Source: a virus
Lineage: Duplodnaviria; Caudoviricetes
Virus record (IMG/VR): IMGVR_UViG_3300020045_003778
Coordinates: 1-26,423 of that record
DNA: 26,423 bases
Strand: one strand, 5' to 3'
Shown: piece by piece, positions 1,572-26,423 of the stretch
Position numbering within the stretch: position 1 is the first letter of the stretch
How the letters are laid out: each line of letters opens with the position of its first letter
Made by a program: the position numbers and the translations under genes
The notes under the pieces: generated by a model
What the model was told of the DNA's origin: nothing
Databases searched by the model: none
What the model saw: the letters and a program-made list of their open reading frames with translations, nothing else

Positions 1572-1572
1572 T

Positions 1573-2724: not shown

Positions 2725-2728
2725 GTAT

Positions 2729-6225: not shown

Positions 6226-6575
6226 AGCCCTTCACACTCAAGGAAGTAGCAGACTTCTGCTACAAACATCAAACGCAGTTCGACAAGCGGAAACGCTACG
6301 TTGCGCGCACGTGGGAAGAGTGGGGCAGAATAGTGGTGGCCGCAGACAAGAACAAAACACTGTGGACCACCGCCAAGGACGAACGCCTAGTAGGAGTTTC
6401 AGTGGCAAAGAAACTCTACGCCGCGAAAATGATGTATGTCTATGAAATCATCTGCATTGAAGACGGTTTCTGGATGTTTGTGAATGCTGTGGAACGTGAT
6501 CACCCCGACTGGGGATTTATTGGTATGAGAAACAACAAGAAAATAACGATTGGAGGCCAAGATGGGACAAGATAA
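6222..6575 (+). CDS. Small protein, possibly GNAT-fold virion assembly factor (T7 gp13 / P22 gp14-like position)
   Basis: 117 aa; ATGA-coupled to nozzle gene; KDERLVGVSV beta motif; synteny before ejection proteins. Confidence 0.45.
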   Translation: MKPFTLKEVADFCYKHQTQFDKRKRYVARTWEEWGRIVVAADKNKTLWTTAKDERLVGVSVAKKLYAAKMMYVYEIICIEDGFWMFVNAVERDHPDWGFIGMRNNKKITIGGQDGTR

Positions 6576-7386: not shown

Positions 7387-7398
7387 ATAACTACTTAT

Positions 7399-8373: not shown

Positions 8374-8374
8374 T

Positions 8375-11300: not shown

Positions 11301-13438
11301 AAAGCGAGCTTAGCGCCGCTGAGATAGATAGAATCTCCGATTACGTCTATGCGAAGAAGCACAATGAGCCATCTGATGTCAAGCCCACGGAGCTAGAGCA
11401 GGAGCATATCAACACGGCGCGAGAGATCATAGACACCACGGGTATGCAGAAAGTCATGGGCGCCTACATCACAGACTTCGACGCGAAAGGCAACCAGTTC
11501 CAGCGGCCAGCGATAATGACTGAGCATTTCTTTCCCGAGGCGATGAATAGCCGTGCAAGAAAGGTGTTGAACAACGCCACTCGATATGGCGATGAATACA
11601 ATAGATTGCGCAATGACTTCATAGCCTTCCAGGTGTCTCAAGGCCGCACCGAAGAAGTGGCCGGCAAGATATTCGAGCAGCTGAAATCCATACCGCAGGT
11701 CGATAAGAAGAATATCAACATGCAGTTCCGCGGCAATCGCTTCGCTTTAGGTGTGGGACTACCGAAATCAATGAGGATGAATGCTATAGATGCATTAGAC
11801 CGGGACATCTCCAGGCATTTCCAGGATTATTCGTGGCACAAGAACATTGAAAGCGATCCACAATTAGCTAAAGGATTAGGCCTAGAGGATATGGGCCGCA
11901 ATGATAAAGTCCCCGATGAAGTGCTGGACGATGCTGGCAATCCTATTGAGTCGAATATCTTGCAGAGTGAGGATACCGCGGCGATGCACAAAGACTATTT
12001 AGGATATTCGAATCCTGGTGGGCAGATGCTGGAAAAGATGACATCTACTGTGGCATCCACACTGGTATCTACGTGGTCTGCTGTGCGTGATACACTACGT
12101 TTGCCGGTGTTCATGGCGACACACGGCACCATTCCACAGAACGTGCGCTTGGCTTTGCCAACTATTGCGGATGCTTTCAAGAAATCTGTAAAGCACGAGG
12201 CTATGGCCGCCGGTGGCCTGCGTGCTAAAGGTAATGCCGCCATGACAATCGTGGACGACGCTGAAGAAGGCATCAAGGGAATCTTGACCGACGGGCTGCG
12301 CACCGGCATACATCGTATTACAGCCACAGAGCGCATCTCCTCAGCTAATCGCCAGCTTGGATTTGCCTACGGAAAACGCTTAGCGCGGGATAACTTCATC
12401 AAAGCCAACGAGAAATTCCTAGAGAAGTGGGGACCGTTTGAATGGCGCAAGATGGCTGCTGAGAATCCTGAAGAGCTATTCGATTACATCGGCGCACGTA
12501 TGGCTGGTGCCAGCGGTGGAACTTATGGTGCAGAAGGCTTGCCTAATTTTGCACTGAAATCCGGAGACAATAAAGTCCTGCAAGCCACCGCCCCGCTGTA
12601 TCGCTGGAGCATAGAAGAGTTCAACCGCTGGTATCGTGACGCATACACGCCAGCTAAAGAGGGAAATGTTGGTCCTTTGTTGCGTTCGTTGACCGCTACG
12701 ATGGCGCTAACAACACCGGTGTTTAACTATCTCAAAGAGAAGATCACAGAAGCCAAGCCAAGGGAGATGACTTGGGCAGAGTATCTTAAACTAGGCGGGA
12801 AAGAAGATACAGCCTACGAACTTTTCTCCAGAATCGAGGCAGCTGGATATGCTGGTGCTTTAGGCAGCTTGGCATTCATGGCTGTGCAAACATGGAAAGG
12901 TGAAACACCACATGGTTTTGGCCAGCCAGCATTCCAACTCGCGGTGGATATTATCGAACGTTTCTCCCAGTGGGGCCAGCACTATCGTAATGGAGAAGCT
13001 GAGCTAGGCGACCTAGCTACTTACGCTGGTGAGACTGCTTTACAGCAAGTGCAAATCCTACGTATGTTAAGTCAGCAACCACCTACCGGCGAGCGTGAAG
13101 AGAATATTGCCCGCCGAGTAGGTGTGCTGCCACCAGAAAGCAAGGGTGACTATGGGGTGCGTGACCCACTGTCGATGTCTGGCGCGTATCGTAGCAATGA
13201 TGCAGAGCGATTGGCGAAGATATTTCGTAGTCGTATAGAGAAGGCTCCGATGTATCCAACTCGCAATCCACTACCACGCCCAACAAGCGCCGTGCGCCCT
13301 GATCCGAACTACTACAGATTCATTGCCGAGCTTCAAGGGCCAGAAGCGGCGGAAGCTGCGTATCAGCGCGATAAGGATGAAACGATTAAGAAGAGGGAGC
13401 TATTCCAACGCGCGGCGCAGGAAGCTACTAGGAGATAA
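8375..13438 (+). CDS. Large internal virion / ejection protein (1687 aa)
   Basis: Gly/Ala-rich hydrophobic N-terminal segments (GAGAGAVLGGGAGLAGGPAAP), long Pro/Ala/Glu-rich linker, helical C-terminal region; last gene of the virion arm. Confidence 0.7.
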   Translation: MPRWRRITTEEAAQLRSKGLTETRNVVVDQDTGDLAEAGDESESKLGFAARSIAGAIPPLLAGRAIGAGAGAVLGGGAGLAGGPAAPATVPAGVTAGIIGGNIVGGLAASGLQEYLLKGAANRWPSSAIADFQRRREGDIQASPYASMLTSLGASPAGGGGLMTIPSTLKRAAQMGGLQFGIDIPLQYATTGEYDPVRGLIAAGSGAFQSTPNRSIRNLERKITSAIPGIRGTSFEEHFAPRMAPEKPQADAIDKVRRSYGQQLRSRLEGEQIPPANVESPGTDKDVLASIAAEGMTVAKPAVPAEPTLAAAQPPPLAPELAGQLADLAAGKRYAIPLSATDTLAAPEGTVITETSKGKILHDKTIKPELIKIWAENDQLGSLYGKPEAASPTVAESSVTKPASPADSVPAAIKAVAPVEPPKEVTAIPPGTRVEIGDETGNHYTVGQTVGDQVEIIQGGKKQTIPVATLESFIRSTGAKVTAPSAAVTYEAPPASTAPKLEIKQAQSEEVIPPVKEITPEEIKADLEATAREAADELGGVGDDVVEPVVPVAPKVKKPRQPRGIVLKQKPAEASPVTSAVEEAPLTTKLPAARPAPGKQSSEEAARILAELEKPGSAAIQGRVTEDTRPKGPTHVLPESVTKVRTPEEQRNFRINTLADRIDDLRPRLAGSTDKVALRNLKKMEKEMATLIAEREAYKNPASIGSGIKAVMEKGKESGAVLNPFTILSERVKNRKLRLSKENTDLLPKLVKDRVDKYVADWANTNYKINSLDFNDSDSVFIRSDAEYNPINLKTGTTGTGPSAGDFHGEKGILPGQRVKLPPGGVVVEQAYRGNGDPYIAVHYNSRDPMFSVAGPAEQGSIGAGMQRAIGAKSESGSIINPGPEIQRAMEAGGAGPAKLPTMADLKAGAKRVIGAPFKAGEYLGIKQLYDMTKGSVQRKLATGHPLEYRHVKKYEQMVVDAAKQAPFKQAMQEMKSELSAAEIDRISDYVYAKKHNEPSDVKPTELEQEHINTAREIIDTTGMQKVMGAYITDFDAKGNQFQRPAIMTEHFFPEAMNSRARKVLNNATRYGDEYNRLRNDFIAFQVSQGRTEEVAGKIFEQLKSIPQVDKKNINMQFRGNRFALGVGLPKSMRMNAIDALDRDISRHFQDYSWHKNIESDPQLAKGLGLEDMGRNDKVPDEVLDDAGNPIESNILQSEDTAAMHKDYLGYSNPGGQMLEKMTSTVASTLVSTWSAVRDTLRLPVFMATHGTIPQNVRLALPTIADAFKKSVKHEAMAAGGLRAKGNAAMTIVDDAEEGIKGILTDGLRTGIHRITATERISSANRQLGFAYGKRLARDNFIKANEKFLEKWGPFEWRKMAAENPEELFDYIGARMAGASGGTYGAEGLPNFALKSGDNKVLQATAPLYRWSIEEFNRWYRDAYTPAKEGNVGPLLRSLTATMALTTPVFNYLKEKITEAKPREMTWAEYLKLGGKEDTAYELFSRIEAAGYAGALGSLAFMAVQTWKGETPHGFGQPAFQLAVDIIERFSQWGQHYRNGEAELGDLATYAGETALQQVQILRMLSQQPPTGEREENIARRVGVLPPESKGDYGVRDPLSMSGAYRSNDAERLAKIFRSRIEKAPMYPTRNPLPRPTSAVRPDPNYYRFIAELQGPEAAEAAYQRDKDETIKKRELFQRAAQEATRR

Positions 13439-14018
13439 ACCTAGACAGATCAGGGGGCACATGGCAAGGTGGTTTTACTACCTTGCCATTCTTGTTTTTC
13501 ACTAAGAACTTCTGGCCTTTAGGGATCACGATTAGCTCTTTATCATCTGGTCGTGCGGTCCAGAGCTTTGACATGTTATTTTCGTGGACTACTTTGAACG
13601 CTTCGATTAAGTTCATTGCGTAGCCAAGGTCATCTATCTTGGCCAGTAAGCGATTGGAATATCTATACATACGCTTGTGGCACGGAATGCCTAATCTACA
13701 TTCTTCAATAGTGTAGCTAGCTTCGGGGTCCATAGAGACTAGCGTCTTATTTGTTTTAGCACTATAAGGAATAGGCATCAATCCGCAGGTGATCATAGTG
13801 CCAGCAGTCACGTAGGCTAGATCACAGAGGGCGTCTAGTATTCCTATTTTATCACCCTTATTTCTAGCCTCATCGTATTCTTTATCTTCTTCGTCAATTA
13901 AGTCCGCCCGCAGCTTCAAGGTTTTATCTGGCACATCAGACGTGAAGCGATAGCATCGCTGGTCGAAGGCTTTCATGAACTCTTTGACCAAGTAGAAATA
14001 TGTTTCGGTATTTGTCAT
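13428..14018 (-). CDS. MazG-like all-alpha nucleotide pyrophosphohydrolase (PRA-PH / DR2231-like)
   Basis: LRADLIDEEDKEYDEA...ILDALCDLAYV acidic metal motif; AFKVVHENNMSK and NGKVVKPP...PDL C-terminal signature. Confidence 0.85.
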   Translation of the reverse strand: MTNTETYFYLVKEFMKAFDQRCYRFTSDVPDKTLKLRADLIDEEDKEYDEARNKGDKIGILDALCDLAYVTAGTMITCGLMPIPYSAKTNKTLVSMDPEASYTIEECRLGIPCHKRMYRYSNRLLAKIDDLGYAMNLIEAFKVVHENNMSKLWTARPDDKELIVIPKGQKFLVKNKNGKVVKPPCHVPPDLSRFIS

Positions 14019-14125
14019 ACTTTCTTGCTTTTCTTATTTCCATAATGCACACGTAGGTAGTGCATAGCAATCGAGATGAATCTGCGAGCTGTATATTTAC
14101 AGGTTTTACAAGGGCATTGTTTCAT
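14015..14125 (-). CDS. 36-aa C2H2 zinc-finger microprotein (not in ORF track)
   Basis: MKQCPCKTCKYTARRFISIAMHYLRVHYGNKKSKKV; C-x2-C-x12-H-x4-H; starts 1 nt after upstream stop, ends in ATGA overlap with the MazG-like gene. Confidence 0.75.
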   Translation of the reverse strand: MKQCPCKTCKYTARRFISIAMHYLRVHYGNKKSKKV

Positions 14126-14126
14126 A

Positions 14127-14345
14127 TTACCAGATTAGATCAGGGTTCTCTACCTCCAGCGCCGACATAGAATTCACTATGTATTTATGCACTGGTGCAT
14201 TCTTCTCATGCCTCAGACCATTGTGCCACAGCCAGTGTAGGTAGCTAGCAGGCACATCTTGCATTGGAATTCCTCTATGTTTACCATACGGCATTGGATC
14301 GAGATCACCTAATGTTTCCTTTACTTCTTCACGTTTGATCTTCAT
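14127..14345 (-). CDS. DUF3820-like small protein
   Basis: MPYGKHRGIPMQDVPASYLHWL matches the MPFGKYKG...VP..YL.W family motif. Confidence 0.8.
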   Translation of the reverse strand: MKIKREEVKETLGDLDPMPYGKHRGIPMQDVPASYLHWLWHNGLRHEKNAPVHKYIVNSMSALEVENPDLIW

Positions 14346-15547
14346 AAGTAGTATATTGTTTTCCTTGTTTTATCCACCTTGTGTTTTAACCCGCAACCTA
14401 TTTCTAATTCTTTCAAGCACATCTCTATCTCTTCAATGTTTAGATCGCTGGAGAATTCCAATACGATCTCTGCCTTACTGACTTCCTTACGCTGCTTAAT
14501 GTAGGCTAAGATTTTCCGGCTGGGGATATGTAATACATTACTGCCCGATAAGGCTAGTCCAGCACGCATGTTATCCTCCACAGAGTCCAACAATTCCACG
14601 GCTCTAACCACACATGGTAGTTCAATCTCCATTGTTAGGCTCTCCGCGAAATGTATCGCCGCTGCGAGTTTCAATAAGATGACTTTCTTGCGGCCTAAGT
14701 AGTCCCTCATGCGATCGCCAGCGCCAAGTTCTTTCTTCACGTGGTCGTTAACATACCACGCATCCAGCCATTCAGTCACTGCTGGCCCATAAGTAATCGG
14801 CCCGTAAACACCAGCAAGCTTGCGAAGCCAATCCAGAATAGCAGTCTTAGCGGCCTTTTGCTCGTCTGTCTCGCCGCTGATGTGGAAGGCATCGAATCGT
14901 CTGTTGTTCTCAAAGAGCATAAGAGTCCTGCTGGAGAATCCCTGTCCAAATATCTTATGCTTGTGCGCCTCCTTGAGAAAGTCGATCTGTGTGCCAGCGA
15001 TGAAATTGAGACATAATCGCCGAATGAGGTCTTGGCCCTGATGTTTTGTTTCTTTATCATATTCTTTGCAGTCGTAGGCATTGACTAGGAATTTCACCAC
15101 GTCCTCTGTTTTACGCTGGAATAAAGAAGAGAGTTCCTCCAGCACGAACCAGATAGATGTGTGCGTGTAGAAGGATTTATCGGGGCGCATTATCACGCGA
15201 CCAGATGATGCGAGCTTAGCGAGCAGTTGCTCGAAAGTTATGTTATCCGCTCCGCTGGGGAAGAGTAATTGATGCTCCGTGCCGGTGGAGGTTTTAATCG
15301 TAGGCCGTGACGAGTCCTTATGGAATTTCAGGAAATGACTGATAGCTCCTAACACTAATCCTTTACCCACCGCCGGTGGCCCGACGAATACTATGTATTG
15401 ATTCGGAAACACTGGCATGGATTCCGAATAGAACCACACTCGGCGTTGTAGAGCGGCGGATATTATGAAGTAGAAACCGAAGTTGATATAACTATTTGGA
15501 GAGGGAAGGTTTTTCGTGTATAAAAGCCAGCGTTCATAGTTGGTCAT
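14342..15547 (-). CDS. DUF3987-like AAA+ ATPase, putative replicative helicase, with possible C-terminal winged helix
   Basis: Walker A GPPAVGKG, Walker B-like FVLEEL, AYDC...TK.QG.D.I, FIAGTQ, GFSSR; ATGA-coupled directly downstream of PolA C-part. Confidence 0.7.
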   Translation of the reverse strand: MTNYERWLLYTKNLPSPNSYINFGFYFIISAALQRRVWFYSESMPVFPNQYIVFVGPPAVGKGLVLGAISHFLKFHKDSSRPTIKTSTGTEHQLLFPSGADNITFEQLLAKLASSGRVIMRPDKSFYTHTSIWFVLEELSSLFQRKTEDVVKFLVNAYDCKEYDKETKHQGQDLIRRLCLNFIAGTQIDFLKEAHKHKIFGQGFSSRTLMLFENNRRFDAFHISGETDEQKAAKTAILDWLRKLAGVYGPITYGPAVTEWLDAWYVNDHVKKELGAGDRMRDYLGRKKVILLKLAAAIHFAESLTMEIELPCVVRAVELLDSVEDNMRAGLALSGSNVLHIPSRKILAYIKQRKEVSKAEIVLEFSSDLNIEEIEMCLKELEIGCGLKHKVDKTRKTIYYL

Positions 15548-16530
15548 GCGAATTCTTTCATACCATCCGGGTTATTCGTCTCATGCCACTTGGCCCAATT
15601 ATATCCTTTAGCAATCTCCGCCTTCATCTTATAGTGCTCTCCTCTACTCGATACTAACTCCCGCTCCAACACGCCCTTCAATACCGCCGCACCACTCTCG
15701 ACATGTTCAGATGTATCTGGAACCTGTATGAGAACACTGTCATGTTTATTGTTAAGCACCTGCCACGGCAAATGTTCCTTTTGAATCTTATGATGCAATT
15801 CCACGAACGCCAGGTTAGTAATGGTTCCGACCGTAGATTGAGGGATGAAGGCATAAGCATCTCGTTTCAATGAGTCACTCCATAGTCCGCTGAAATACCG
15901 TGGGTATCCGAATAAGTTGTGCAGAGTTCTATCGGCCGCCAGCTTGGCGTTAATGATTGCATGATATTCTGCAATCTCTGGGAATACTGTGTCGTCAATG
16001 CCGAGGAAGTCTTTCGCTTCTTTAAAGCTCAGCACTATCTCACCTTCACTTTGTTCCAAGCAGTTGACCTGGAATGTCCGGGGCCCCATGTTGTAGTTCT
16101 TCGCGTGCCGCACCATCTTACCGAGTTTGTATTCCCGCTCGGAGTTCTTCAAGGTTTTGAATAGCTCCTTATATTCAGGGTACGTTACGATTACTTCTGG
16201 GTCCACACCTTTGTAGCGGTCACTTGGGTGCCCACCTTTGAACTTCTCTGTGAATATCTGTAGCGCAGTGTAGCTATGTGGTTTCACTCCTAGTTCAAAG
16301 AGCTTGCGGAACTTAGCTCGGCGGCACTCGTAGGCTACGATTAAAGCTTCAGCGCCGGCTTGATCTCCTTGTAGGAATATTTTACCTTCATCTGGTATGA
16401 TACATTGCATCAAGGATGGGCTAGGATTCTGGAGGTTAGCGCCGTAATAACTTAACATCTTAGCAGATGCTAATCGAAAATTCTTTGTACCTGAAAGTTT
16501 CCATCCAGTAGTTATTCTATTCGCTATCAT
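15544..16530 (-). CDS. polA: DNA polymerase family A, C-terminal part (palm and fingers)
   Basis: GTKNFRLAS...NLQN, motif A GDQAGAE, motif B KMVRHAKNYNMG, NLFGYPR, AFIPQST, motif C KHDS; has its own RBS. Confidence 0.93.
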   Translation of the reverse strand: MIANRITTGWKLSGTKNFRLASAKMLSYYGANLQNPSPSLMQCIIPDEGKIFLQGDQAGAEALIVAYECRRAKFRKLFELGVKPHSYTALQIFTEKFKGGHPSDRYKGVDPEVIVTYPEYKELFKTLKNSEREYKLGKMVRHAKNYNMGPRTFQVNCLEQSEGEIVLSFKEAKDFLGIDDTVFPEIAEYHAIINAKLAADRTLHNLFGYPRYFSGLWSDSLKRDAYAFIPQSTVGTITNLAFVELHHKIQKEHLPWQVLNNKHDSVLIQVPDTSEHVESGAAVLKGVLERELVSSRGEHYKMKAEIAKGYNWAKWHETNNPDGMKEFA

Positions 16531-16819
16531 GCCATCTCCTTATTAAATACTTTCGCTCATGGTCTAGGATACACCACTCTTCCCACGTGGCATCTTTGGA
16601 TTCAAATGTTACGGCGATTAGTTCTAGCACATCTAAGTTGATCCTTCTTAGTTTGCATCCATGTGGTTCCGGTAGTAGTTCCCATATACTGTCGCGTGGA
16701 TCAGCGGCGCTTACAATGTGAAATTCACTAGCTTCGGCTGCAAGGGGACGTTCGCTTTTGACAGCTCGGTGTATCTTATTGTGATAGTCCTTCCAAGAAA
16801 AGAACTCTGGTTGTTCCAT
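16517..16819 (-). CDS. Hypothetical protein (start uncertain)
   Basis: Fills the ~180-nt gap between ligase and PolA C-part and overlaps the PolA start by 14 nt, but its ATG lies 109 nt inside the ligase gene. Confidence 0.4.
   Translation of the reverse strand: MEQPEFFSWKDYHNKIHRAVKSERPLAAEASEFHIVSAADPRDSIWELLPEPHGCKLRRINLDVLELIAVTFESKDATWEEWCILDHERKYLIRRWHDSE
16536..16542 (-). promoter_or_regulatory. Shine-Dalgarno site of PolA C-part
   Basis: Minus strand reads TAAGGAG-ATGGC-ATG(16530); the TAA is also an in-frame stop four codons upstream of the ATG. Confidence 0.8.
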
Positions 16820-17487
16820 ACATGTTGTCGTTGTTTCTCGGTGATGTTGCCGCCGCCTACACAGCAGCGTTCTCCAGTTTTACGTATCACTACGAATGCA
16901 CCTAGTGAACCTTTGAATTTCCCTTTCCCCTCGACGAACTCTGATATTTCTACGTTCTCCTGCTGCAAAGGTTTCATCTTGAGTAGAGCAGCAGTGCGGC
17001 CAACATGATATGGCGCTGTTAAATGTCTGATCATGGCGCCTTCGTAGCCACATTGAATGTAGTCTGCTAGCTGCTGCTCAAGTTCCTGCTTATTGCGGAT
17101 TACTTTGAACGACCCACTAGGCACACGTAGATTCGCCGGCATGCTAGAGATATTATCGTAATGCACGAAGTTAATCTTCCACGCATCTGGATGGGCGATG
17201 ATACGGTGCTGGACTAACATGCCACAGAGTTCTTGGAAGGGAATTCCATGACTATAGAGTTCACCATCTTGCGATACGGTGCGATCGAAGTCTAGCTTCT
17301 CGGTGTATAGATGTGGGATGATATGGCGCGGGAACACTTTGCCCTGCCGGGAGATGAATAGCTTCTCCTTATGGTCCCACTTAGCACGCACGCCATTGTA
17401 TTTGGGCTGCACGATTGCCGGGAATGGGATGAAGTCTTGGGCGTAGTAGTCTTCCGCTAACATGGCCCATGAGGGGTAGTCTTTCAT
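16711..17487 (-). CDS. lig: Minimal ATP-dependent DNA ligase
   Basis: Motif I QPKYNGVR, III DGELY, IIIa FVHYD, IV YEGAMIR, V LLKMKP, followed by OB-fold (EGKGKF.G.LGAF...GGG...ITIRY). Confidence 0.9.
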   Translation of the reverse strand: MKDYPSWAMLAEDYYAQDFIPFPAIVQPKYNGVRAKWDHKEKLFISRQGKVFPRHIIPHLYTEKLDFDRTVSQDGELYSHGIPFQELCGMLVQHRIIAHPDAWKINFVHYDNISSMPANLRVPSGSFKVIRNKQELEQQLADYIQCGYEGAMIRHLTAPYHVGRTAALLKMKPLQQENVEISEFVEGKGKFKGSLGAFVVIRKTGERCCVGGGNITEKQRQHVWNNQSSFLGRTITIRYTELSKANVPLQPKLVNFTL

Positions 17488-17744
17488 GGTTTTGCTCCAT
17501 AAAACATTAGATATTCTTGTTTGTTTTCCATATCTGTGATTACTAGCTTGCCTTTCTCTTCTTTCAAATCGTATTCATCCCGTGTGATATATCGTGGCGC
17601 CTTCGACAACCGTGAATACCACACTTCATAATATGGTAAATGTCTATCATGGCAAGCCATGCGTAGCGATTCGTAGCTCGCATAGATTTTATTATGCTCG
17701 CCGTTGATACGGATCATGTCTTCTTGGATTTCTTCTAGTGTCAT
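17484..17744 (-). CDS. Hypothetical protein
   Basis: 86 aa; ATGA overlaps at both ends. Confidence 0.7.
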   Translation of the reverse strand: MTLEEIQEDMIRINGEHNKIYASYESLRMACHDRHLPYYEVWYSRLSKAPRYITRDEYDLKEEKGKLVITDMENKQEYLMFYGAKP

Positions 17745-17932
17745 TGCCGTCCTTTTATTCTGAATTCAAATATTCTTTCTTCTGGTGGTAGTAATGAAGT
17801 AACGTCTCGTTCTTCATCCACCAGCATTGTTTCATATTTCTGCCATTGAAATTGATTGTCGAATGCTTTACATGCACAACGTTCTCGTAGCTCTGGCTTT
17901 ATGCGAAATTCTATAGCCACTTGTTTTCTCAT
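17741..17932 (-). CDS. Hypothetical protein
   Basis: Likely start ATG 17932 (MRKQVAIEFRIK) in ATGA overlap with the PolA N-part stop; EFRIK occurs at both ends of the 63-aa product. Confidence 0.7.
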   Translation of the reverse strand: MRKQVAIEFRIKPELRERCACKAFDNQFQWQKYETMLVDEERDVTSLLPPEERIFEFRIKGRQ

Positions 17933-19341
17933 GGCTGTGTCCACAGTTCACAGTTCAGCATTGATAGGTCTTTTGCGGCCTTGCGATAGCGTAGAATTAC
18001 CGGGATCAATGGGTTGTTATGTTTCAGCATGAGTTGATAGAATTGTTTTCGTCCAAGTTTCGCGCCACCAGTATCGGATTTGGCCACTACTGGGTAATGT
18101 AACACATCGTGGAAGAAAGCTTTGCACTGCGGCGGTGAGCCAGGGTTGAATGTTTTACCTACTAGTATGGAGCAAATCCTAGCATATTGCTGCGCCGCTA
18201 GGGTTAAATGCGTAGATGTTTCCAGTTGCTGCACACGGTTGAGGCGTAGGCCTGTTAGAGTGTTAGCTAGATACGGGCCGACCATAGAGTTGGCCTGGGC
18301 TATGGAGTCCAGGAGTCCAGGCTTATCCTTTGCGTAATTAAGTTGTGCATCCTTGATAAGCTTGAGATTGAAAACATCTTTAGCATTGTATTGCCAGAGT
18401 TGCTGTTCAGTTTTACTATTGAAGGCTTCACATATCTGGTCCTTATGATAAGGTTGCCAGGTCCACTGGGCGATTACGTGGGATAAGGATTTCTCCACTT
18501 CTGGGAATGCTCGGTGATTGGCTAGCATCGTATCGTAAATACGTGATGGTAATGGAAAGCGATAGAATCCGTGGAGCACCGTTAGATCGAACATACTGTT
18601 GTGGATTACCACTGTATTCTTCAAGAGAGCCACAGCCAGAGCACGATAAATAGTAGAGAAGTCACGGTAAGCAAGTCCGCCAGAATAATTATAGACAGGC
18701 ACAACATAAACTTTAGGGAAAAGCGATGTGGAAGAGAAGCCAATACACGTGATTGCGCGATGTTGCCTTGACGTTTCAATGTCGAGATAAAGGTCTTCAT
18801 TCTTAATAGTGCTAAGGACTTTAACTAGCTCACCACTTGAAGGATATACATGCACGTTCGGCCTGCCTTCATTAACTGGAACTCCATGCAGTAATTTCTG
18901 GACGTGCCAAGCTGTCCAGAATCTGTGGTTTCCTCTCTTGGTCGGACTTGCATCTTTAGTATCACGCTCGCTACCGCCATCGTCATCGTCATCATCGCCG
19001 GCTCCTTCGATGTTTCTATGGTCGCAACAATCCTGTGGATAGTAAGCTACCACTGTGCGGATGCCTTTAACATAATGTGGATACCCGTGCTTACTAACGT
19101 CGCCGTGATATTGCTTGGCTGCTAGTGGGCCTAGCAAAGCTAGGTATTTAGTTCCTGGGATGAACTCGTCCCAACATTTCGTATCTCTAATGTCGCAACC
19201 AGCTAGGCATAAAGGCTTGATGACTTCATCTTCCATCCACTGGCCGGCTACACCAGAGAGTAGGTGGTCTTTATCTAATCTACTGGGCTTGTCGATTACG
19301 ATAGTCAAGCCGTTGTAGGCTATTGATGGAGGGGTTCTCAT
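17929..19341 (-). CDS. polA: DNA polymerase family A, N-terminal part (degenerate UDG-like domain, 3'-5' exonuclease, thumb)
   Basis: ExoI LDIETS, ExoII HNSMFD, YDTMLA, ExoIII YNAKD; thumb TGLRLN...FNPGSPPQ...NPLIPVILRYRKAAK; N-terminus resembles family 4 UDG fold (IVIDKP, SGVAGQ, LALLGPLA, AYYP). Confidence 0.88.
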   Translation of the reverse strand: MRTPPSIAYNGLTIVIDKPSRLDKDHLLSGVAGQWMEDEVIKPLCLAGCDIRDTKCWDEFIPGTKYLALLGPLAAKQYHGDVSKHGYPHYVKGIRTVVAYYPQDCCDHRNIEGAGDDDDDDGGSERDTKDASPTKRGNHRFWTAWHVQKLLHGVPVNEGRPNVHVYPSSGELVKVLSTIKNEDLYLDIETSRQHRAITCIGFSSTSLFPKVYVVPVYNYSGGLAYRDFSTIYRALAVALLKNTVVIHNSMFDLTVLHGFYRFPLPSRIYDTMLANHRAFPEVEKSLSHVIAQWTWQPYHKDQICEAFNSKTEQQLWQYNAKDVFNLKLIKDAQLNYAKDKPGLLDSIAQANSMVGPYLANTLTGLRLNRVQQLETSTHLTLAAQQYARICSILVGKTFNPGSPPQCKAFFHDVLHYPVVAKSDTGGAKLGRKQFYQLMLKHNNPLIPVILRYRKAAKDLSMLNCELWTQP

Positions 19342-19553
19342 CGGTGTTTGAATGCTGCGATATACGCTTGCTGCACTTTATGTGCCTGCTCAACTGTAGC
19401 ATGGTAACCTAAGTAGTAACGATTTCCATTGATGCAATAGGTGGCCAACCACTTCTGACTTTTCGTATGCCACGATACGCCACGATAGCCGGAGCGGTTC
19501 TTAATGTTGAGCTTGCGTTGCTTCATTGGTGCGCAGTCCTTTAAGTTCTTCAC
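19338..19553 (-). CDS. Stand-alone AP2-domain DNA-binding protein (start 19553 or 19526)
   Basis: NRSGYRGVSW...KWLA...NGNRYYLGY..TVEQA is the AP2 signature; no HNH domain; ATGA-coupled to PolA N-part. Confidence 0.8.
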   Translation of the reverse strand: MKNLKDCAPMKQRKLNIKNRSGYRGVSWHTKSQKWLATYCINGNRYYLGYHATVEQAHKVQQAYIAAFKHR

Positions 19554-19806
19554 CTTTTGGCACGATAATACCAGAGCGTCTCCATAATATTACACCATCA
19601 CTACGGAAGCCAAACTCGATCATGAACTGTATGCCATCTGGCTTGTCAGACGTGGTGAATAACATGGAGTTCCGCCAGGCTAATACTTCTGGTTCTTTCT
19701 CACGGAAGCCCATGTAGAGACAGAAGATAATGACAGCTAGCCCCGCTAGTAAGCCCACTAGGTTTCTAATCTCCATCTTTTCATCTTGGAATTTGGGTAG
19801 ATTCAT
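19501..19806 (-). CDS. Small predicted membrane protein (start 19806 or 19776)
   Basis: One hydrophobic segment LVGLLAGLAVIIFCLYMGF. Confidence 0.6.
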   Translation of the reverse strand: MNLPKFQDEKMEIRNLVGLLAGLAVIIFCLYMGFREKEPEVLAWRNSMLFTTSDKPDGIQFMIEFGFRSDGVILWRRSGIIVPKGEELKGLRTNEATQAQH

Positions 19807-19812
19807 AAAGAG

Positions 19813-19843
19813 AACCACTCCTGGTCACAGCGGCAGAGTGGTT
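19813..19843 (-). terminator. Intergenic hairpin, possible weak terminator or RBS-sequestering structure
   Basis: AACCACTC (19813-19820) / GAGTGGTT (19836-19843) perfect 8-bp inverted repeat, followed on the minus strand by CTCTTTAT. Confidence 0.4.
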
Positions 19844-19866
19844 ATGTGCCCGTGCGCACTTGTTAG

Positions 19867-20061
19867 TTATTCTTCGCTGTCGCCAGCGATACCAGACCAG
19901 TCAGCTTTCGCTGGCTCCTGTGTTTCCTCGAAGCTTAGTGTTACTTTGTCTGCGTTTATTAGAGCTTCGATCGCATCTCCTTCGTTATCTTTGTAGTAGG
20001 CAACATCATTCTCGTCCAGCTTGACTACTATAGATAGCGATACTTTGTAGTTCTTTGTCAT
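19867..20061 (-). CDS. Small acidic hypothetical protein
   Basis: Likely start ATG 20061 (MTKNYKVSL), 1 nt after the SSB stop; 64 aa, D/E-rich. Confidence 0.65.
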   Translation of the reverse strand: MTKNYKVSLSIVVKLDENDVAYYKDNEGDAIEALINADKVTLSFEETQEPAKADWSGIAGDSEE

Positions 20062-20062
20062 G

Positions 20063-20605
20063 TTAGTATGGAACTTCCGCCCTACTAGGCCTACAGTTCT
20101 CCAGCACATCTGAGATGTTCGCATTGATGCGCCAGCCATCAGAGATCTCCTTGCCCTCGCCGTCCAGTATGGGTGCGCCGATCTTCTCACCTTTGCTCTT
20201 GTCTGCGGGCAACCGTTTGATTGCCTCCTCGCTGGACAAGATGATGTCGAACTCCATGCCGAGGAAGTATTCAGCATGTGCGTCCGTGTCGTATTCCTCG
20301 CCGTCGTATTCTACCTTGAGCTTGTCCATGAAGCGGAACACTTGTGACTGGGAGGATTCTGTCTGCTTACCTACCAATGAGGGCACATGCACGAGGTAGA
20401 GTTTGAATGACATGCCCGCGATACGCTGATCGGCGCCATCAATAGTGATACTCTCCGGCTCCACGATTTCCGCATTGAGCGTGGTCATCGGATTGCCAGA
20501 GTTGCTCTTGCCGAATGACGTGCCCGTCACGCGAGCGCGATAGCAACCTTTAGGCAACTCGAACTTACCGCCGCCCATTATGGTATCTGTTTTACTGATT
20601 TTCAT
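20063..20605 (-). CDS. DUF669-like single-stranded DNA-binding protein
   Basis: LPKGCYRARVT...KSNSGNPM...EI motif; C-terminal EVPY resembling SSB tails; directly downstream of Sak4-like ATPase. Confidence 0.7.
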   Translation of the reverse strand: MKISKTDTIMGGGKFELPKGCYRARVTGTSFGKSNSGNPMTTLNAEIVEPESITIDGADQRIAGMSFKLYLVHVPSLVGKQTESSQSQVFRFMDKLKVEYDGEEYDTDAHAEYFLGMEFDIILSSEEAIKRLPADKSKGEKIGAPILDGEGKEISDGWRINANISDVLENCRPSRAEVPY

Positions 20606-20608
20606 TTA

Positions 20609-20635
20609 TGTTTTGTTTTGTGTGTTTTGTTTTGT
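20609..20635 (-). repeat. 13-bp direct repeat in SSB leader
   Basis: TGTTTTGTTTTGT at 20609-20621 and 20623-20635 (ACAAAACAAAACA on the coding strand). Confidence 0.85.
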
Positions 20636-20650
20636 ATTACACCACCTATC

Positions 20651-21436
20651 TTAGGTGCTGTAAATTTTTAAGATCTCTTCGTAACTAGCAGGCACCATCT
20701 TAATCTTCGCCGCTCTTAATTTCACGCCCAAGATAGGGTTCGTATTAGTGTTCACTTGCTCGTCACCGATGAGCTGCCACCACCATCCTGCTTTGATAGC
20801 CTTCTTACCCTCAGCGATTACGATGCCGCCCTTCTCGTTGCGCTCATAGGGATTGCATAGCTGGCGCCACACATCAGTGAAATGCCCGAGTAGTTGATCC
20901 TTAAACGAGCCGTCCATCACGGGGCGAATCTTCCCGGTAAGTTCTCCTTCAGCATCACGATCAACTGTTTCATGGAATGTCACCACTACTCTAGCCCGGC
21001 ACGCTTTGACCATCTCCATGATCTCTGTGGCATACTGCACCTTACGTTTCCAGAAGGCGAATGGATTAGGCTTGTCTGCCATGTCTTCTTCGAGTTGTGT
21101 CTGCTGGTCGAAGGCATTCTGCATGATGGTCCACGAGTCGATGATAACAGTTTGTTCTTCTGTGTAGAGTGTGTGGTTCTCCCGGAAGTGTTTCTTGAAC
21201 GCATCGCGGCGGTTCGCTGGAGAGTTGCCATAGGTTCGCTTCGCTTGACTGTCCACGTATTTAGCGTCCCACATGGGAATGGATGTCTCGTTCGCCGGTA
21301 GCTTATGATCGAAATCATACCATATCCTGTTAGGGAAAGACAGGCAAGAGGTAGTCTTACCACTGCCCGGTGCTCCGATCAGCGCGATGATCTCGTGCGG
21401 CGCTGTTGATTTTATTGACTCCTTGGGGATGTGCAT
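20651..21436 (-). CDS. Sak4-like (AAA_24) ATPase, putative ssDNA-annealing recombinase
   Basis: Walker A GAPGSGKTT, Walker B VIIDSWT, VVVTFHE; adjacent to SSB and near PD-(D/E)XK nuclease. Confidence 0.8.
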   Translation of the reverse strand: MHIPKESIKSTAPHEIIALIGAPGSGKTTSCLSFPNRIWYDFDHKLPANETSIPMWDAKYVDSQAKRTYGNSPANRRDAFKKHFRENHTLYTEEQTVIIDSWTIMQNAFDQQTQLEEDMADKPNPFAFWKRKVQYATEIMEMVKACRARVVVTFHETVDRDAEGELTGKIRPVMDGSFKDQLLGHFTDVWRQLCNPYERNEKGGIVIAEGKKAIKAGWWWQLIGDEQVNTNTNPILGVKLRAAKIKMVPASYEEILKIYST

Positions 21437-21439
21437 ATA

Positions 21440-21733
21440 CTAATATCTCCTATCATGTTTCCGTTTATTGTGTCGTGCTGCTGCTAGATAGTTGATGCTG
21501 TCCAGTTGTTCGTTGTAGAGTTCTGCTAGGTGATCCACGTCAGCCACGAAACAACCTTCACCGTGTTCCTTGCTGCCCGCCACGAACTTATGAATATTGC
21601 TGGTTACCAACTCCACGCAAGTCTGCGTGATGAAGTCGAAGTCTTCGATGCATAAGCGGTGGCCTAGTTCTCCTTCCTTGTCGCGGACTAACTGGTGGAC
21701 TAGTTCTGTTATTGTTTTATGTGTGGATGTCAT
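21440..21733 (-). CDS. Hypothetical protein, possibly MazG-like all-alpha fold
   Basis: KF..G..EHG...D.L.ELYNEQLD..NYL pattern; ATGA-coupled to upstream gene. Confidence 0.5.
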   Translation of the reverse strand: MTSTHKTITELVHQLVRDKEGELGHRLCIEDFDFITQTCVELVTSNIHKFVAGSKEHGEGCFVADVDHLAELYNEQLDSINYLAAARHNKRKHDRRY

Positions 21734-21921
21734 GGTCTTGATAGTTGTTCTGCCAGTCGTAGGAATTCTCGTTGCGCATCTTCTTCTGTTTCGAAACTAG
21801 CGTTGTATGGATTGGCTGAATCAGATTTCGTCCACATCTTTATTGTTGCATATTCAATGCTGAGGTATACCAGCTCATCTCGGTTGACTATATCTGAACC
21901 TACTCGTATGAACTCACTCAT
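21730..21921 (-). CDS. Hypothetical protein
   Basis: 63 aa; TAATG and ATGA overlaps with neighbours. Confidence 0.7.
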   Translation of the reverse strand: MSEFIRVGSDIVNRDELVYLSIEYATIKMWTKSDSANPYNASFETEEDAQREFLRLAEQLSRP

Positions 21922-22787
21922 TATCTGAACTCCATTGGGTTATATGTTTTCTTCTCAAACCTAGATAGCAATTCTACTTCTCTTTCACTGCCCATCACCA
22001 AACAGGCGTTACGGAAATCACAATAGTCACAGTATTTATAGATGTTCATGCCATCATGGGGTGCTGGACTTGAACCTAAAGCGACAATGTCCATCGCTTC
22101 TTTCGCTCGTGTTTCGATTATCAACGGAACTTCACGCGTGATGAAATCGCTATTGAATGCTTGCTTCGATAGCGTCTTGAATCTCGGTGGCTGTGCCGCA
22201 TAGAACACGATTAACAATTCAACTCTGTATCTACCGTTGACCAGGTAGTCTTTATACCTAGCTGGAAGTATGCCGGAATTAAGCAGGCAGAAAACATAGA
22301 ATGGTAGTTGGAAACTGAGGGAATAACTATCTAGCTTGGCTGCGATTTTGTAGTCTGTCACGTCACCGGCGGTCTTGTAGTCCAGGATTACTAGGATGTC
22401 TTTCTCTTCGTCCAGGTGGATGCGGTCGATGGTGCCGCAAAGTTCTATGTCCTGCTCGCCATGATTGTAAGGAAACGAGAACTTAATCTCCACCGCCGGC
22501 TTGCCATCATCAAGGATTATCGGTGGTGGTAGCTTCTTAGTGGTTCTAAACAAAGCAACTGTCTGCATGAGCAGCAGCTTATTCACGTCCGGATATTTCT
22601 CAAAGGTTTTATCCACGCTTTCATCAACACCTAAGTTTTTATCCAGGTATTCGATGGCTGTGTGGAATGCAGACCCGAACTGTGCTGATGCGGATGTATG
22701 TCCTTTAAGTCCATCCACCACAGCGAGCTGGAAACGTCGCTTGCAGGGGAGCAAACTTAATGCGGAGTTATCTAGGAGGAGTTTCAT
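21921..22787 (-). CDS. Cas4-like / RecB-family PD-(D/E)XK exonuclease
   Basis: CKRRF, GSAFH, VE, GTIDRI, LDYKT, QLPFY, C-terminal CDYCDFRNAC (1+3 Cys Fe-S pattern). Confidence 0.88.
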   Translation of the reverse strand: MKLLLDNSALSLLPCKRRFQLAVVDGLKGHTSASAQFGSAFHTAIEYLDKNLGVDESVDKTFEKYPDVNKLLLMQTVALFRTTKKLPPPIILDDGKPAVEIKFSFPYNHGEQDIELCGTIDRIHLDEEKDILVILDYKTAGDVTDYKIAAKLDSYSLSFQLPFYVFCLLNSGILPARYKDYLVNGRYRVELLIVFYAAQPPRFKTLSKQAFNSDFITREVPLIIETRAKEAMDIVALGSSPAPHDGMNIYKYCDYCDFRNACLVMGSEREVELLSRFEKKTYNPMEFR

Positions 22788-23357: not shown

Positions 23358-23538
23358 TCATTGTTCTCCTGTTGATTGCCGCTGGTGGTTTAGGCCATGT
23401 GGACCAGTGTGATCGAGCTACTATGTAGCCACTGAATCTTAATCCTAGCACGCCACCAGCAATATCTGTGTCTCTAAGACTGTCGTGATAGCGCCGGTGT
23501 TCTCTCCACTCCTGGTCACTAACTACGTATTCACTCAT
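23323..23538 (-). CDS. Hypothetical protein
   Basis: 71 aa; 8-nt overlap with upstream gene, 35-nt overlap with downstream gene. Confidence 0.55.
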   Translation of the reverse strand: MSEYVVSDQEWREHRRYHDSLRDTDIAGGVLGLRFSGYIVARSHWSTWPKPPAAINRRTMNDDQGITRQNT

Positions 23539-24082
23539 TGTATCTTATGAAGTGTATCTCATTATCTTCCAAGCGATAGACGAATAGATGTTTGATGTCT
23601 GATATCAAGTTCTCTATCCACTCCTTATCCGAGCCACTTAGAAAGATGCCCACCTTATGGAACTTCGCACCCTGCTCCGCGGCGTTATCCAAGTAGTCTT
23701 GAAGTTCACCTTTCCAATCATCCGTGGAAAGCGTGGACAAAGTATCCATCGCATATCGCTTCGGCACGATCTCTATGTAGTCTCTGTATGTCTGGCACTT
23801 GATATAGCGCGCCTTCTCCTGGTAATTGCTATCCATGCATTCTTTAAGATAGCGTAGCCCTTCATAGTATTGTAACCTCACCGTGGTGAGTGAGACATGC
23901 GTGGCATGGATTTTATGTGGCTTGCCCGTGGAGATCACTAGGTCCACCACTTTCTTGACCTGCTCACCATAGAGTTGTGCGTAGTATGGACGCCTAACGT
24001 TCTTAGTAGCGGGCTGAGCGGTGGACTGTTCTAAGAATTTCTTAGCTAGACTAGCCATCTTGGGGTCTTCAAATAAATCCAT
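23531..24082 (-). CDS. Hypothetical protein
   Basis: 183 aa; start overlaps the end of the sigma-54 activator-like gene by 14 nt. Confidence 0.75.
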   Translation of the reverse strand: MDLFEDPKMASLAKKFLEQSTAQPATKNVRRPYYAQLYGEQVKKVVDLVISTGKPHKIHATHVSLTTVRLQYYEGLRYLKECMDSNYQEKARYIKCQTYRDYIEIVPKRYAMDTLSTLSTDDWKGELQDYLDNAAEQGAKFHKVGIFLSGSDKEWIENLISDIKHLFVYRLEDNEIHFIRYNE

Positions 24083-24935
24083 AGGTTTTATAGCGTCTCA
24101 CGAACGTCTGTATTCCCCGCACATTGAAGCGATAGATGTCTGGCAACACCGAGTCCGGGATTGGTTCTGTCCAGTTTAATGGATTCCCAGATGTATCAAG
24201 TCCTTTCGCGGCGATCAATGGGATGTCATCTTTACGAGATTCCAAGCCAGTGACACGTAACTCGTGCGTGAATAGTCTAGCGAATAAGTCCTCGCGAAAT
24301 AGTCCTTTCTCTACTTGTTCTCGTAGGTCGAACTTAGTGGCAGCCACGAAGCGACATGCTATGGGTATGCTTTCCACGGCACCTAACCTACATACCTCCC
24401 GTTCCTGTATAGCTCTTAACAGCATGGCTTGTAGCTCCAGTGGCATGTCTCCTATCTCATCTAAGAATACTACACCGGCTTTAGCTTGCACTAATATTCC
24501 TTGTCTATCGCTATCCGCGCCAGTGAAGGTGCCGCGTAGATGTCCGAAGAATATAGACGCTATGAGTTCCTTAGGTATGCCAGCACAATTCCGCGCCACG
24601 AATGGCTCGTCGTTATCACCTATTGCTCTGGCGATTAACTCTTTGCCCGTTCCACTGGGGCCAGTTATCAACACTGCATCATGATTAGAACTGTTTTTCT
24701 GGATGGCTATCACTTTAGACTTCAAGCGTAGCATAGCTGGATCGTTAGTGATCCACTTGTCCAGAGAGACTTCTACGTTCTTCCTTGTCAAGCGCTGGAA
24801 GACATCTGCGCCGGTGACTTGTCCGCTAGCGATCTGCGCTGTGAGTTTCTTGAGTTCCTCATACTGTGTTGCTTTATATGTGGTGTCCCGAAGGACTATT
24901 CCACGTGGGCCTAATTGGTTATTCGTGGGTTGCAT
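24069..24935 (-). CDS. Sigma-54 interaction domain AAA+ protein (NtrC-family enhancer-binding protein core), no sensor or HTH domain
   Basis: VLITGPSGTGKELIARAI, FVARNCA, FFGHLRGTFTGA, FLDEIGDMPLELQAMLLR, RFVAAT, FREDLFARL, NVR. Confidence 0.92.
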   Translation of the reverse strand: MQPTNNQLGPRGIVLRDTTYKATQYEELKKLTAQIASGQVTGADVFQRLTRKNVEVSLDKWITNDPAMLRLKSKVIAIQKNSSNHDAVLITGPSGTGKELIARAIGDNDEPFVARNCAGIPKELIASIFFGHLRGTFTGADSDRQGILVQAKAGVVFLDEIGDMPLELQAMLLRAIQEREVCRLGAVESIPIACRFVAATKFDLREQVEKGLFREDLFARLFTHELRVTGLESRKDDIPLIAAKGLDTSGNPLNWTEPIPDSVLPDIYRFNVRGIQTFVRRYKTYGFI

Positions 24936-25089
24936 CTTGTTTTTCTACTAGCGTTAGTATCTTATATGGGAACGCTGTGCTACCGTAAAGGGTATCTAAG
25001 AACCCTTTACTCGTTTCCGCTCCTTCAAGAGTTCTGTAAACTGCTAATGGCTCGCCGCGACTATCCACTAATAGGTAGTATTCTTTCAT
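24919..25089 (-). CDS. 56-aa hypothetical protein (not in ORF track)
   Basis: MKEYYLLVDSRGEPLAVYRTLEGAETSKGFLDTLYGSTAFPYKILTLVEKQDATHE; ATGA overlap with helicase stop, 17-nt overlap with next gene. Confidence 0.75.
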   Translation of the reverse strand: MKEYYLLVDSRGEPLAVYRTLEGAETSKGFLDTLYGSTAFPYKILTLVEKQDATHE

Positions 25090-26423
25090 ATGATTTCTCC
25101 TTCTTCATCATCTTCATCATCCTCATTCTCCTTGACGAAATCCGTCACGATAGTATCGTCCTTCTCGGCATCTAGTGCTGCTTGCTTCTGATCCCTAACG
25201 GTTATTTTATTCATGGGTTTATCCGTGCGTGTTAGCAAGTCGATGATATCGAATGATCTATTGGTGATCTCCGCTATGCATTTCAATTTCTCATCCAATA
25301 TGGGTGCAACATGGTATTCCTCCACAGTATCCCGCAACATGCAGATCAACTGGTCTGCATCATCAATGCTGGCCCTTCTAACTAACCTACCAAGAGCCTG
25401 CTGGAACTCCTTGCCCGAGTAGATAGGTGTGAAGATTCCCTCGCGCCTTAGTAAAGATTCTTTATTTCGATCAAAGCTAAGACCGATACCACCGCTGGCG
25501 ATAGTAGCTAGCACTATTTTAGATTCTCCATTCTGGAATTTATCTATCTCGATCTGCCGCGCGTTCTGTGATTGCTTACCCACCAAGCGTAGTTCTTTGA
25601 GGCGATTATGCCGATAACTTTGCTCTTCCACCGATTCACTATGCTCATGCTGGTCTTGCATGTAGCGTAGCGTGATGCGTATCTTCTTGAGCAATCCTTT
25701 GTTCTTGATTAGCTCGCCCACATTGGGGTTCTTCAGGATGTTATCTATCTCCTCCTTGGACAGCAGATCATCTGGTTTGTATTCCTTCTTTCCGCCCCAG
25801 ATTATGGAGATTTGCTCTCGTGGGATATGATATTTATCCACCAGTTGGAATGCTACTTCCGTGATTGTCTCCTTGTAAGCAGTGAATATAGCTGTAGCTC
25901 GGGTTCCAGATTTGTAGTTGTTGGCTGCTCGTTCGGCCAAATCCCAGGCTCGCATTGGCTCCGCTGTCTTACGAAAGTTATTAAGCGCAATGAATACTTC
26001 GAATCTACCCCACATGGTGTTCTTCCCCGACTTGGCGCACGCCTCAATATACCTTTGTTGAGCGGTATCGTAGATGACTTTATGTTCAGGTTTTCTAAAG
26101 TCGACGAGCCAAACTGTATTGATAGCTTTGTGCTTAGGTTTGACATAAGGGAAACTTATTATGTTGTTACTCAGAATAGAACGCAACCTTTTAAGTGCTT
26201 CTCTATTAGGTTTATCTGGCCGTGGATCAACAAGTTGTGCGAACTGCTTGAATGTGTCCTCATTGACATGCGTGCCCATGAATACTTTGTTCGCCATCAT
26301 GGTGAATAGCCACGCATCGTTGACTTTCTCCATAGGAGTGGCGGACATAGTGAGGAAGTGTTTCTTAACCTTATCATTCATCAGATAGAACGTGGCTCTA
26401 GTCCTCCATGTGTACTTCTTCCC
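25086..26423 (-). CDS. Superfamily 2 helicase, 5' truncated by window edge
   Basis: Frame open to base 26423; motif III MSATP, motif V SGGIGLSF, motif VI QALGRLVR; acidic C-terminal tail; motifs I and II would lie outside the window. Confidence 0.85.
   Translation of the reverse strand, partial: GKKYTWRTRATFYLMNDKVKKHFLTMSATPMEKVNDAWLFTMMANKVFMGTHVNEDTFKQFAQLVDPRPDKPNREALKRLRSILSNNIISFPYVKPKHKAINTVWLVDFRKPEHKVIYDTAQQRYIEACAKSGKNTMWGRFEVFIALNNFRKTAEPMRAWDLAERAANNYKSGTRATAIFTAYKETITEVAFQLVDKYHIPREQISIIWGGKKEYKPDDLLSKEEIDNILKNPNVGELIKNKGLLKKIRITLRYMQDQHEHSESVEEQSYRHNRLKELRLVGKQSQNARQIEIDKFQNGESKIVLATIASGGIGLSFDRNKESLLRREGIFTPIYSGKEFQQALGRLVRRASIDDADQLICMLRDTVEEYHVAPILDEKLKCIAEITNRSFDIIDLLTRTDKPMNKITVRDQKQAALDAEKDDTIVTDFVKENEDDEDDEEGEII

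Follow-up and report, generated by a model that had tools for sequence, protein, structure and literature searches.

A predicted minimal sigma-54 activator without sensor or DNA-binding domains is conserved in an uncultured phage lineage with -24/-12 sites

We have analyzed a 26,423-base virus fragment, referred to here as the window. It contains part of a virion arm on the plus strand, followed by genes on the minus strand that include a predicted activator of sigma-54 RNA polymerase:

1..13438 (plus strand): distal half of the virion arm, with an SU10-adaptor-like gene and a 1687-aa probable ejection protein
13428..22787 (minus strand): replication arm downstream of the activator, with a PD-(D/E)XK exonuclease, Sak4-like protein, likely SSB, split PolA, ligase, primase-like protein and MazG-like protein
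23531..24082 (minus strand): 183-aa conserved lineage gene overlapping the activator stop, with two small alpha/beta domains, weakly R3H/IF3C-like
24069..24935 (minus strand): minimal sigma-54 activator (AAA+ core of an enhancer-binding protein, bEBP), 288 aa, ATG start
24919..25089 (minus strand): 56-aa ORF without a family match, whose overlaps link the helicase and the activator
25086..26423 (minus strand): C-terminal part of an SF2-type helicase, cut by the end of the window; it lies upstream of the activator throughout the lineage

The activator gene overlaps the 56-aa ORF on its upstream side by 17 nt and the 183-aa ORF on its downstream side by 14 nt, and the opposite (plus) strand across 24069-24935 is full of stop codons. 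The first-pass annotation had placed the gene, by virtue of such overlaps, within an early operon. The overlaps are as described, but the setting is better termed a helicase/recombination/replication arm. Near-complete relatives are 44-58 kb in length, and the record lacks the terminase, portal and capsid genes and their upstream DNA, together with the early region. The missing half was not recovered, and in one DNA run there are just a pair of short stretches that are identical and a single short match that is unlike.

The 183-aa gene occurs in 108 clusters, and lies downstream of the activator in most of the lineage loci. Its product has tandem alpha/beta domains with near-invariant YY, W and F residues, and may bind nucleic acid. 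It matched no Pfam, PHROG or NCBIfam family, its Atlas scores were below 0.9 and its fold matches had Z values of 6.6 or less. Complex prediction for the activator together with this neighbor gave a score of 0.00. Within the replication arm the family A DNA polymerase is split in two (17929-19341 and 15544-16530, minus strand), with the ligase and small ORFs in between. It is split in some relatives and fused (~790-840 aa) in others, and no family matches the first 170 residues at its N-terminus. Directly before the polymerase there is a stand-alone AP2-domain ORF (19338-19526, minus strand; PF00847, E 4e-9) that looks like the part of an HNH homing endonuclease that binds DNA, the nuclease part being absent. 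A 72-aa ORF (14127-14345, minus strand) located between the primase-like and MazG-like genes matches PF12843 (QSregVF_b).

The activator matches Pfam PF00158 (Sigma54_activat) over residues 66-225, with E 1.4e-51 and 174.9 bits against a cut-off of 20.2. The translation confirms the complete bEBP AAA+ core that had been noted at first sight, with both Walker motifs, the asparagine, both arginines and the NVR sequence, and the GTFTGA loop lies exactly where it had been placed. The elements of the protein, all on the minus strand, are as follows:

24756..24935 (minus strand): N-terminal extension of ~60 aa, of variable length across the family and without a Pfam match
24639..24662 (minus strand): Walker A, GPSGTGKE, residues 92-99, from sequence and alignment
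24588..24590 (minus strand): switch asparagine N116, invariant in 23 of 23 aligned lineage proteins
24516..24533 (minus strand): L1 loop GTFTGA, a variant of GAFTGA, residues 135-140; G135, T138 and G139 invariant in 23 of 23
24456..24470 (minus strand): Walker B, VFLDE (FLDE is residues 157-160), from translation and alignment
24276..24299 (minus strand): arginine fingers R214 and R220 in FREDLFAR (FREDLFARL), invariant in 23 of 23
24117..24125 (minus strand): sensor II, NVR, residues 271-273, in a shortened lid; R273 invariant in 23 of 23

Sensor I is T200. An acidic residue following the Walker A lysine is typical of bEBPs according to the section of PMC7175178 consulted. Residues 161-243, which cover the pre-sensor I insertion (L2), align without gaps with ZraR and NifA. 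Some residues that are usually conserved differ, such that ESELFG becomes ASIFFG and the sensor I sequence ATN becomes ATK. The AlphaFold model has a mean pLDDT of 88.8 (from a 45-row alignment), and its top Foldseek matches are the AAA+ domains of FlrC, FleQ and NtrC1, with E values of 1e-21 to 1e-20. In this model the N-terminal extension, earlier put at ~55 aa and refined here to ~60, is mostly helical (residues 18-36 and 42-59).

A Pfam search of the activator returned no REC, GAF, PAS or HTH family even at E 0.1, and the chain ends 15 residues beyond the NVR sequence. This agrees with the earlier statement that the protein has neither a sensor nor a Fis-type HTH. The alpha-helical lid is also shortened. 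From Walker A to the C-terminal end there are 197 residues, where HTH-less bacterial REC-AAA proteins have 219-226 and the longer bacterial ones 267-367, making the lid ~20 residues shorter than in the HTH-less bacterial proteins. The activator falls below the whole-protein cut-off in the best 25 of 26 matched NCBIfam bEBP equivalog models (NtrC, NifA, PspF, RtcR, ZraR and others), and its top PHROG match is PHROG 7998, of unknown function. By every feature of sequence and predicted fold examined the ORF is a bEBP, and what is new is its architecture and setting.

The same gene order is found in 48 of the 66 viral loci found with the activator protein, and the complete proteins there are 241-328 aa in length. 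The remaining 18 loci lack the lineage synteny, and mostly encode longer, host-type bEBPs. Alignment using the polymerase led to 491 viral stretches. The activator is present in 32 of the 80 loci examined, most of the others beginning too near the polymerase to show it. Automatic annotation names the lineage activators after GAF, PAS and Fis domains, none of which the proteins possess. In 23 aligned lineage proteins, with 31-44% identity to the query, the Walker A and B motifs, N116, G135, T138, G139, T200, R214, R220 and R273 are all invariant. The L1 loops of 62 distinct lineage proteins (63 before L065 was taken out as non-lineage) read GSFTGA (29), GAFTGA (15), GSYTGA (7), GSYSGA (4), GAYTGA (3) and GTFTGA (2), with two singles, and every one conforms to Gx[F/Y][T/S]G. 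Values of dN/dS lie between 0.04 and 0.22 in all 15 of a set of hand-picked pairs of relatives, none of which includes the window. The loops, the dN/dS values and the shared synteny speak against an unconserved loop or a decaying host capture, both of which had been raised as possibilities. On these comparisons a recent, decaying capture is excluded, and the activator is a conserved gene of an uncultured phage lineage.

A phage clade had also been envisaged. In a 116-row tree made by a quick search, from which 17 near-duplicate or partial rows had been dropped, 25 phage rows fall on one side of a branch, although its SH-aLRT is only 79 and the branches are long. A single origin of the phage activators would fit this tree, which neither rejects nor shows it. 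The window protein has a long terminal branch, and its nearest neighbor is L001/G001, which shares the same isoleucine substitution in the ESELFG motif and has five strict sigma-54 sites of the kind described below. Eight further loci (L127, L135, L146, L157, L158, L165, L173 and L177) form a tight group of 387-aa HTH-less bacterial bEBPs apart from the phage group, with ~168 residues before Walker A and an end 219 residues after it. L065:9725-10579 encodes a short (284 aa), apparently HTH-less bEBP with the loop GAFTGA on a viral contig without the lineage synteny. L133, taken as a lineage member through a MazG-like neighbor, was relabelled bacterial. A metagenome scan of 1/64 parts, saturated by bacterial bEBPs, provided no close relative, and its matches served as an outgroup. 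We found no cultured member of the lineage in the GenBank phage collection among the matches listed (40 of 66 and 60 of 65 for the activator). The activator matches listed there are mostly host DNA by annotation or size, and the polymerase matches reach at most 31%.

Relatives in the lineage carry predicted sigma-54 promoters. Across 14 records, made up of the window and 13 relatives, there are 39 strict TGGCAY-N5-TTGC sequences where dinucleotide shuffles predict 2.72, and wrong spacers give just 0-2 matches per record. The strict site is absent from the window and from G002, the other member with a GTFTGA loop. Matches to the -24/-12 promoters for which the first-pass annotation had proposed a scan are present in the relatives, but none is seen in the window. 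At positions that the search did not force, T precedes the motif in 26 of the 39 sites and follows it in 36, in line with the sigma-54 consensus. The relaxed form TGGCAY-N7-GCW, a rule framed after the variant of one subclade had been seen, is found 112 times in 20 genomes, where six other spacers give 17-37 matches, and twice in five phages outside the lineage. In leave-one-genome-out matrix scans most of the strong sites are intergenic and in the sense direction.

The sites are placed before particular genes. With the G016-G018 subclade left aside, 28 of 29 loci have a sense site scoring 13 bits or more in the interval that runs from 150 nt ahead of the activator stop to 750 nt beyond it, compared with 1 of 42 antisense controls, the matrix having been built partly from the same sites and many of the loci being close kin. 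Many of these sites are 2-45 nt past the stop codon, and in most relatives a sigma-54 site heads the replication arm, with no such site seen in the window. A site is also found 117-193 nt before a capsid-like gene in 14 of 15 genomes (13 of 14, and G018), against 2.1% of random 300-nt windows; the exception is G024, where no site precedes the gene. The capsid-like gene has no Pfam or PHROG match, and was called from gene order and Atlas feature scores of 0.95-0.97, with 13-75% of cluster members having capsid families. Further sites precede the terminase region of relatives and, in G001, G003, G007 and G019, the helicase-activator operon itself. At G001:26058-26134 and G009:30294-30641 sigma-54 sites are back-to-back or clustered on opposite strands, and the reverse-strand site in G001 heads a gene with paralogues elsewhere in that genome (cluster c65). 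A search of five near-complete relatives found a sigma-70 region 2 domain in none of them, and the gene maps examined show no second bEBP.

DNA upstream of the strong sites shares more 9-mers than shuffled sequence does (50% vs 34%) and has more dyads (1.28 vs 0.65), and may thus contain enhancers for a host bEBP. The commonest shared 7-mers there are A/T tracts without a common consensus, and terminators, neighboring sites and A/T tracts could cause the excess of words and dyads.

One subclade (G016-G018) encodes a sigma factor of its own, a full-length sigma-54 of 430 aa that scores above the cut-off of TIGR02395 and has the AID, CBD and DBD Pfam domains:

L263:9990-11282 (= G016:29990-31282): phage sigma-54 gene, found also in G017, G018 and L286-L306

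The gene is absent from the other 17 fetched genomes and from the window. All 21 viral loci with the phage sigma-54 also carry the activator. Upstream DNA is available for 19 of them, and in every one of these a -24/-12 site is predicted at a distance of 34-60 nt ahead of the sigma gene. These loci are 75-100% identical, and therefore count as one event. The sites of G016-G018 mostly end in TAGC, AAGC or AGGC and not in TTGC. Twelve loci with the loop FGYMPGAFTGA, of the G016-G018 type, have no site after the activator, and these three genomes have no site in the region equivalent to the window, yet have sites before the capsid-like gene. That these phages carry the sigma factor, the activator and the sites together is the best indication that the activator works on sigma-54. 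G016 repeats a tail-gene block at both ends (1-12289 and 47006-58477), its 58.6 kb including ~11 kb of overlap, and counts for G016 may include duplicated DNA. Two 5-kb lineage contigs come from genome bins, the labels of which are Phycisphaerales and Terracidiphilus. Identity between the phage sigma-54 and its cellular matches in 31 genomes of the phylum of the Phycisphaerales bin is no higher than 28-41%, and for this reason no host is assigned.

The window itself is blank. The best score in a scan with the trained matrix is 12.0, inside the helicase and on the wrong strand, and the region after the activator scores 6.3. A relaxed pattern gives 3 matches where 4.3 are expected, the consensus with two mismatches gives 24 (26.5 expected), and a sigma-70-type scan gives 17 (22 expected). 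Sense-strand GGCAY-N7-GCW sequences at 19372, 20813 and 22260, and a GG-N8-TTGC at 24143 with a score of -3.3, were rejected as chance. The intergenic gap that usually follows the activator is replaced by the overlap with the 183-aa gene. In 12 relatives there are 14 sites inside the region equivalent to the window, the limits of which were set by hand, and 53 of the 67 sites lie outside; at least one is inside in nine of the 12. Given these nine relatives and the site-free G016-G018, the blank in the window is unusual, though with precedent. The scans cover the 26,423 bases of the record, which lacks the half that holds 53 of the 67 sites in relatives. Since no promoters can be seen in it, the window makes a poorer example than the relatives do.

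We think it likely, from the comparative sequence evidence, that this sensorless, HTH-less and lineage-conserved bEBP core activates sigma-54 RNA polymerase constitutively, and independently of enhancers, at -24/-12 promoters of the phage's own. The earlier suggestion of phage transcription driven through the sigma-54 holoenzyme finds good support at the level of the lineage in conserved sites, invariant residues, purifying selection and the sigma-54 of the subclade, but not in this genome, where no site rises above chance in 26 kb. The activator would first be expressed from a promoter that is not sigma-54 dependent, or with the help of a host bEBP, and would then assemble an ATP-hydrolyzing ring, with no signal required. 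The L1 loop would engage region I of sigma-54 in closed complexes from solution, as in the engineered DctD250, of which the phage protein may be a natural counterpart. The L1 and L2 loops of bEBPs contact sigma-54 and the -12/-11 DNA (PMC7175178, in part), and threonine at the second position of GAFTGA is classed as putatively functional in the accessible text of PMC3162934. As described in the portion of PMC3844500 consulted, DctD250 consists of the AAA+ domain only and activates sigma-54 promoters constitutively, promiscuously and free of enhancers; such truncated activators are weaker, and at glnK DctD250 falls short of NtrC by about tenfold. The phage activator would in this way open the promoters that precede the replication arm, terminase and capsid gene and, in several relatives, also that of the helicase-activator operon, creating positive feedback. 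Sigma-54 would be supplied by the host except in G016-G018, with their own sigma-54 and a -12 element shifted to (T/A/G)(A/G)GC. In the case of the window, the promoters acted on would be expected in the head and early half that the record lacks. The activator would incidentally also fire sigma-54 promoters of the host.

Other explanations must be weighed against this. It is unlikely in our view that host bEBPs acting through enhancers, or a mixed ring, fire the phage promoters, with the phage protein a co-subunit or modulator that is unable to work alone. The invariance of all the cis- and trans-acting ATPase residues argues against such a role, as do the lack of a consensus in the A/T tracts that dominate the shared upstream words, the closeness of many sites to the activator stop codon, and the retention of the activator in every locus of the subclade with its own sigma-54. 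It would nevertheless fit with the excess of words and dyads upstream of the sites and with the shortened lid. There are precedents for mixed rings, since FleT reportedly works with FleQ, and HrpS with HrpR. Natural bEBPs without both domains are also rare, FleT being the named case in the available text of PMC3162934. A main role in reprogramming the host, whether by promiscuous activation of the whole sigma-54 regulon (nitrogen scavenging, surface structures) or by tying up the holoenzyme, strikes us as quite improbable. It would leave unexplained the conserved sites before the capsid, terminase and replication genes, and the phage sigma-54 with its shifted -12 elements. DctD250 activates many host sigma-54 operons (PMC3844500, in part) and the window has no target site of its own, both consistent with reprogramming, and from that promiscuity an effect on the host regulon is expected as a by-product. 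An inhibitor could do without the arginine fingers, sensor II and Walker B that are intact here, and we find no positive evidence for the poisoning of host sigma-54 that had been suggested. Effects on host genes are plausible as a side effect of the activator.

We regard it as very unlikely that the sigma-54 circuit has lapsed or changed in the phage of the window, leaving a protein with another AAA+ role (in replication, for example, beside the helicase) or one that is becoming a relic. The 26 kb are free of sites where most of the 12 relatives have one, a gene overlap takes the place of the usual gap after the activator, and the protein has its long terminal branch, each of which is consistent with a lapse. 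Yet it retains every residue that is invariant in the family, and its nearest neighbor, with the same isoleucine substitution, has its five strict sites. Moreover G016-G018 are equally free of sites in this region while having them before the capsid gene, and most of the sites of the relatives lie outside it.

Among the closest counterparts known to us, FleT of Rhodobacter (Cereibacter) sphaeroides, a type Ic bEBP, likewise lacks sensor and DNA-binding domains (PMC3162934, in part), but it is a chromosomal flagellar regulator, whereas the phage activator has a shortened lid and predicted phage target promoters. DctD250, an engineered AAA+-only fragment of Sinorhizobium meliloti DctD, has the same architecture and about the same length (excerpts of PMC3844500). 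Unlike this laboratory construct, the phage activator occurs in nature, evolves under purifying selection and carries a variable, helical extension at its N-terminus. A DNA-binding domain is also missing from Helicobacter FlgR and Chlamydia CtcC (PMC3162934, in part). The activator scores 154 bits against the FlgR model NF049963, whose cut-off is 750, has no Response_reg match, and is placed apart from the HTH-less bacterial REC-AAA proteins in the 116-row tree. FlgR and CtcC have an N-terminal receiver domain and are controlled by a signal. In the bEBP-like proteins that act with sigma-70 (TyrR, DhaR, HupR and VpsR) GAFTGA is defective or deleted, whereas the phage loop is of full length with its phenylalanine and threonine.

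Among phages, Pseudomonas phage YuA depends on host sigma-54, with one sigma-54-like promoter reported in the accessible parts of PMC5053324 and 10.1101/2023.10.13.562163. The phages of the present lineage differ in encoding an activator, and each genome among the relatives holds several sites. The matches to the activator listed from the GenBank phage collection include no Pseudomonas phage record. Htm (Gp204) of E. coli phage AV110 is an HTH-less phage AAA+ protein proposed to act on sigma-54 RNA polymerase (bioRxiv 10.64898/2026.10.06.757011, in part). In the sections of that preprint consulted it has no GAFTGA loop, has DD in Walker B and is bEBP-like by structure only, whereas the present activator is a bEBP at the level of sequence with its loop intact. 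T4 MotA/AsiA and gp55, gp33 and gp45 are also phage-made activators that redirect host RNA polymerase to replication and virion genes (PMC6024815, in part), but with sigma-70-family chemistry and no ATP-driven opening step. We found no description of a phage-encoded bEBP or phage sigma-54 in the literature searched, with most subscription papers outside its coverage. The view that the strategy is without precedent holds for a phage bEBP within that literature, but has to be qualified by the dependence of YuA on host sigma-54 and by the architecture of FleT. The use of sigma-54 by a phage and a bEBP without both domains are each known, separately. To our knowledge, the middle and late transcription strategies described for phages employ a phage RNA polymerase, sigma-70-family factors, sigma-70 appropriation or antitermination.

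Sigma-54 holoenzyme is locked until an ATPase opens it, and a phage that encodes the ATPase would therefore gain a tight switch that needs no host signal. On balance, and with somewhat less assurance than for the activator itself, we favor the broader view of a widespread lineage whose replication and virion genes are controlled by a self-made sigma-54 circuit. A sensorless, enhancer-free activator would be a core gene of this circuit, which would include positive feedback and, for one branch, both a phage sigma-54 and a shift in the -12 element; the phage of the window may have shifted its promoter code further. The family would offer natural minimal activators and paired sets of sigma-54, activator and promoter. 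With these the action of a bEBP without enhancer or sensor, the limits to drift in the GAFTGA loop and the lid, and shifts in promoter specificity all become testable. A promiscuous activator would also disturb the sigma-54 regulons of the host during infection. If the interpretation is correct, this self-made sigma-54 circuit would be an ATP-gated switch for phage transcription of a previously undescribed kind.
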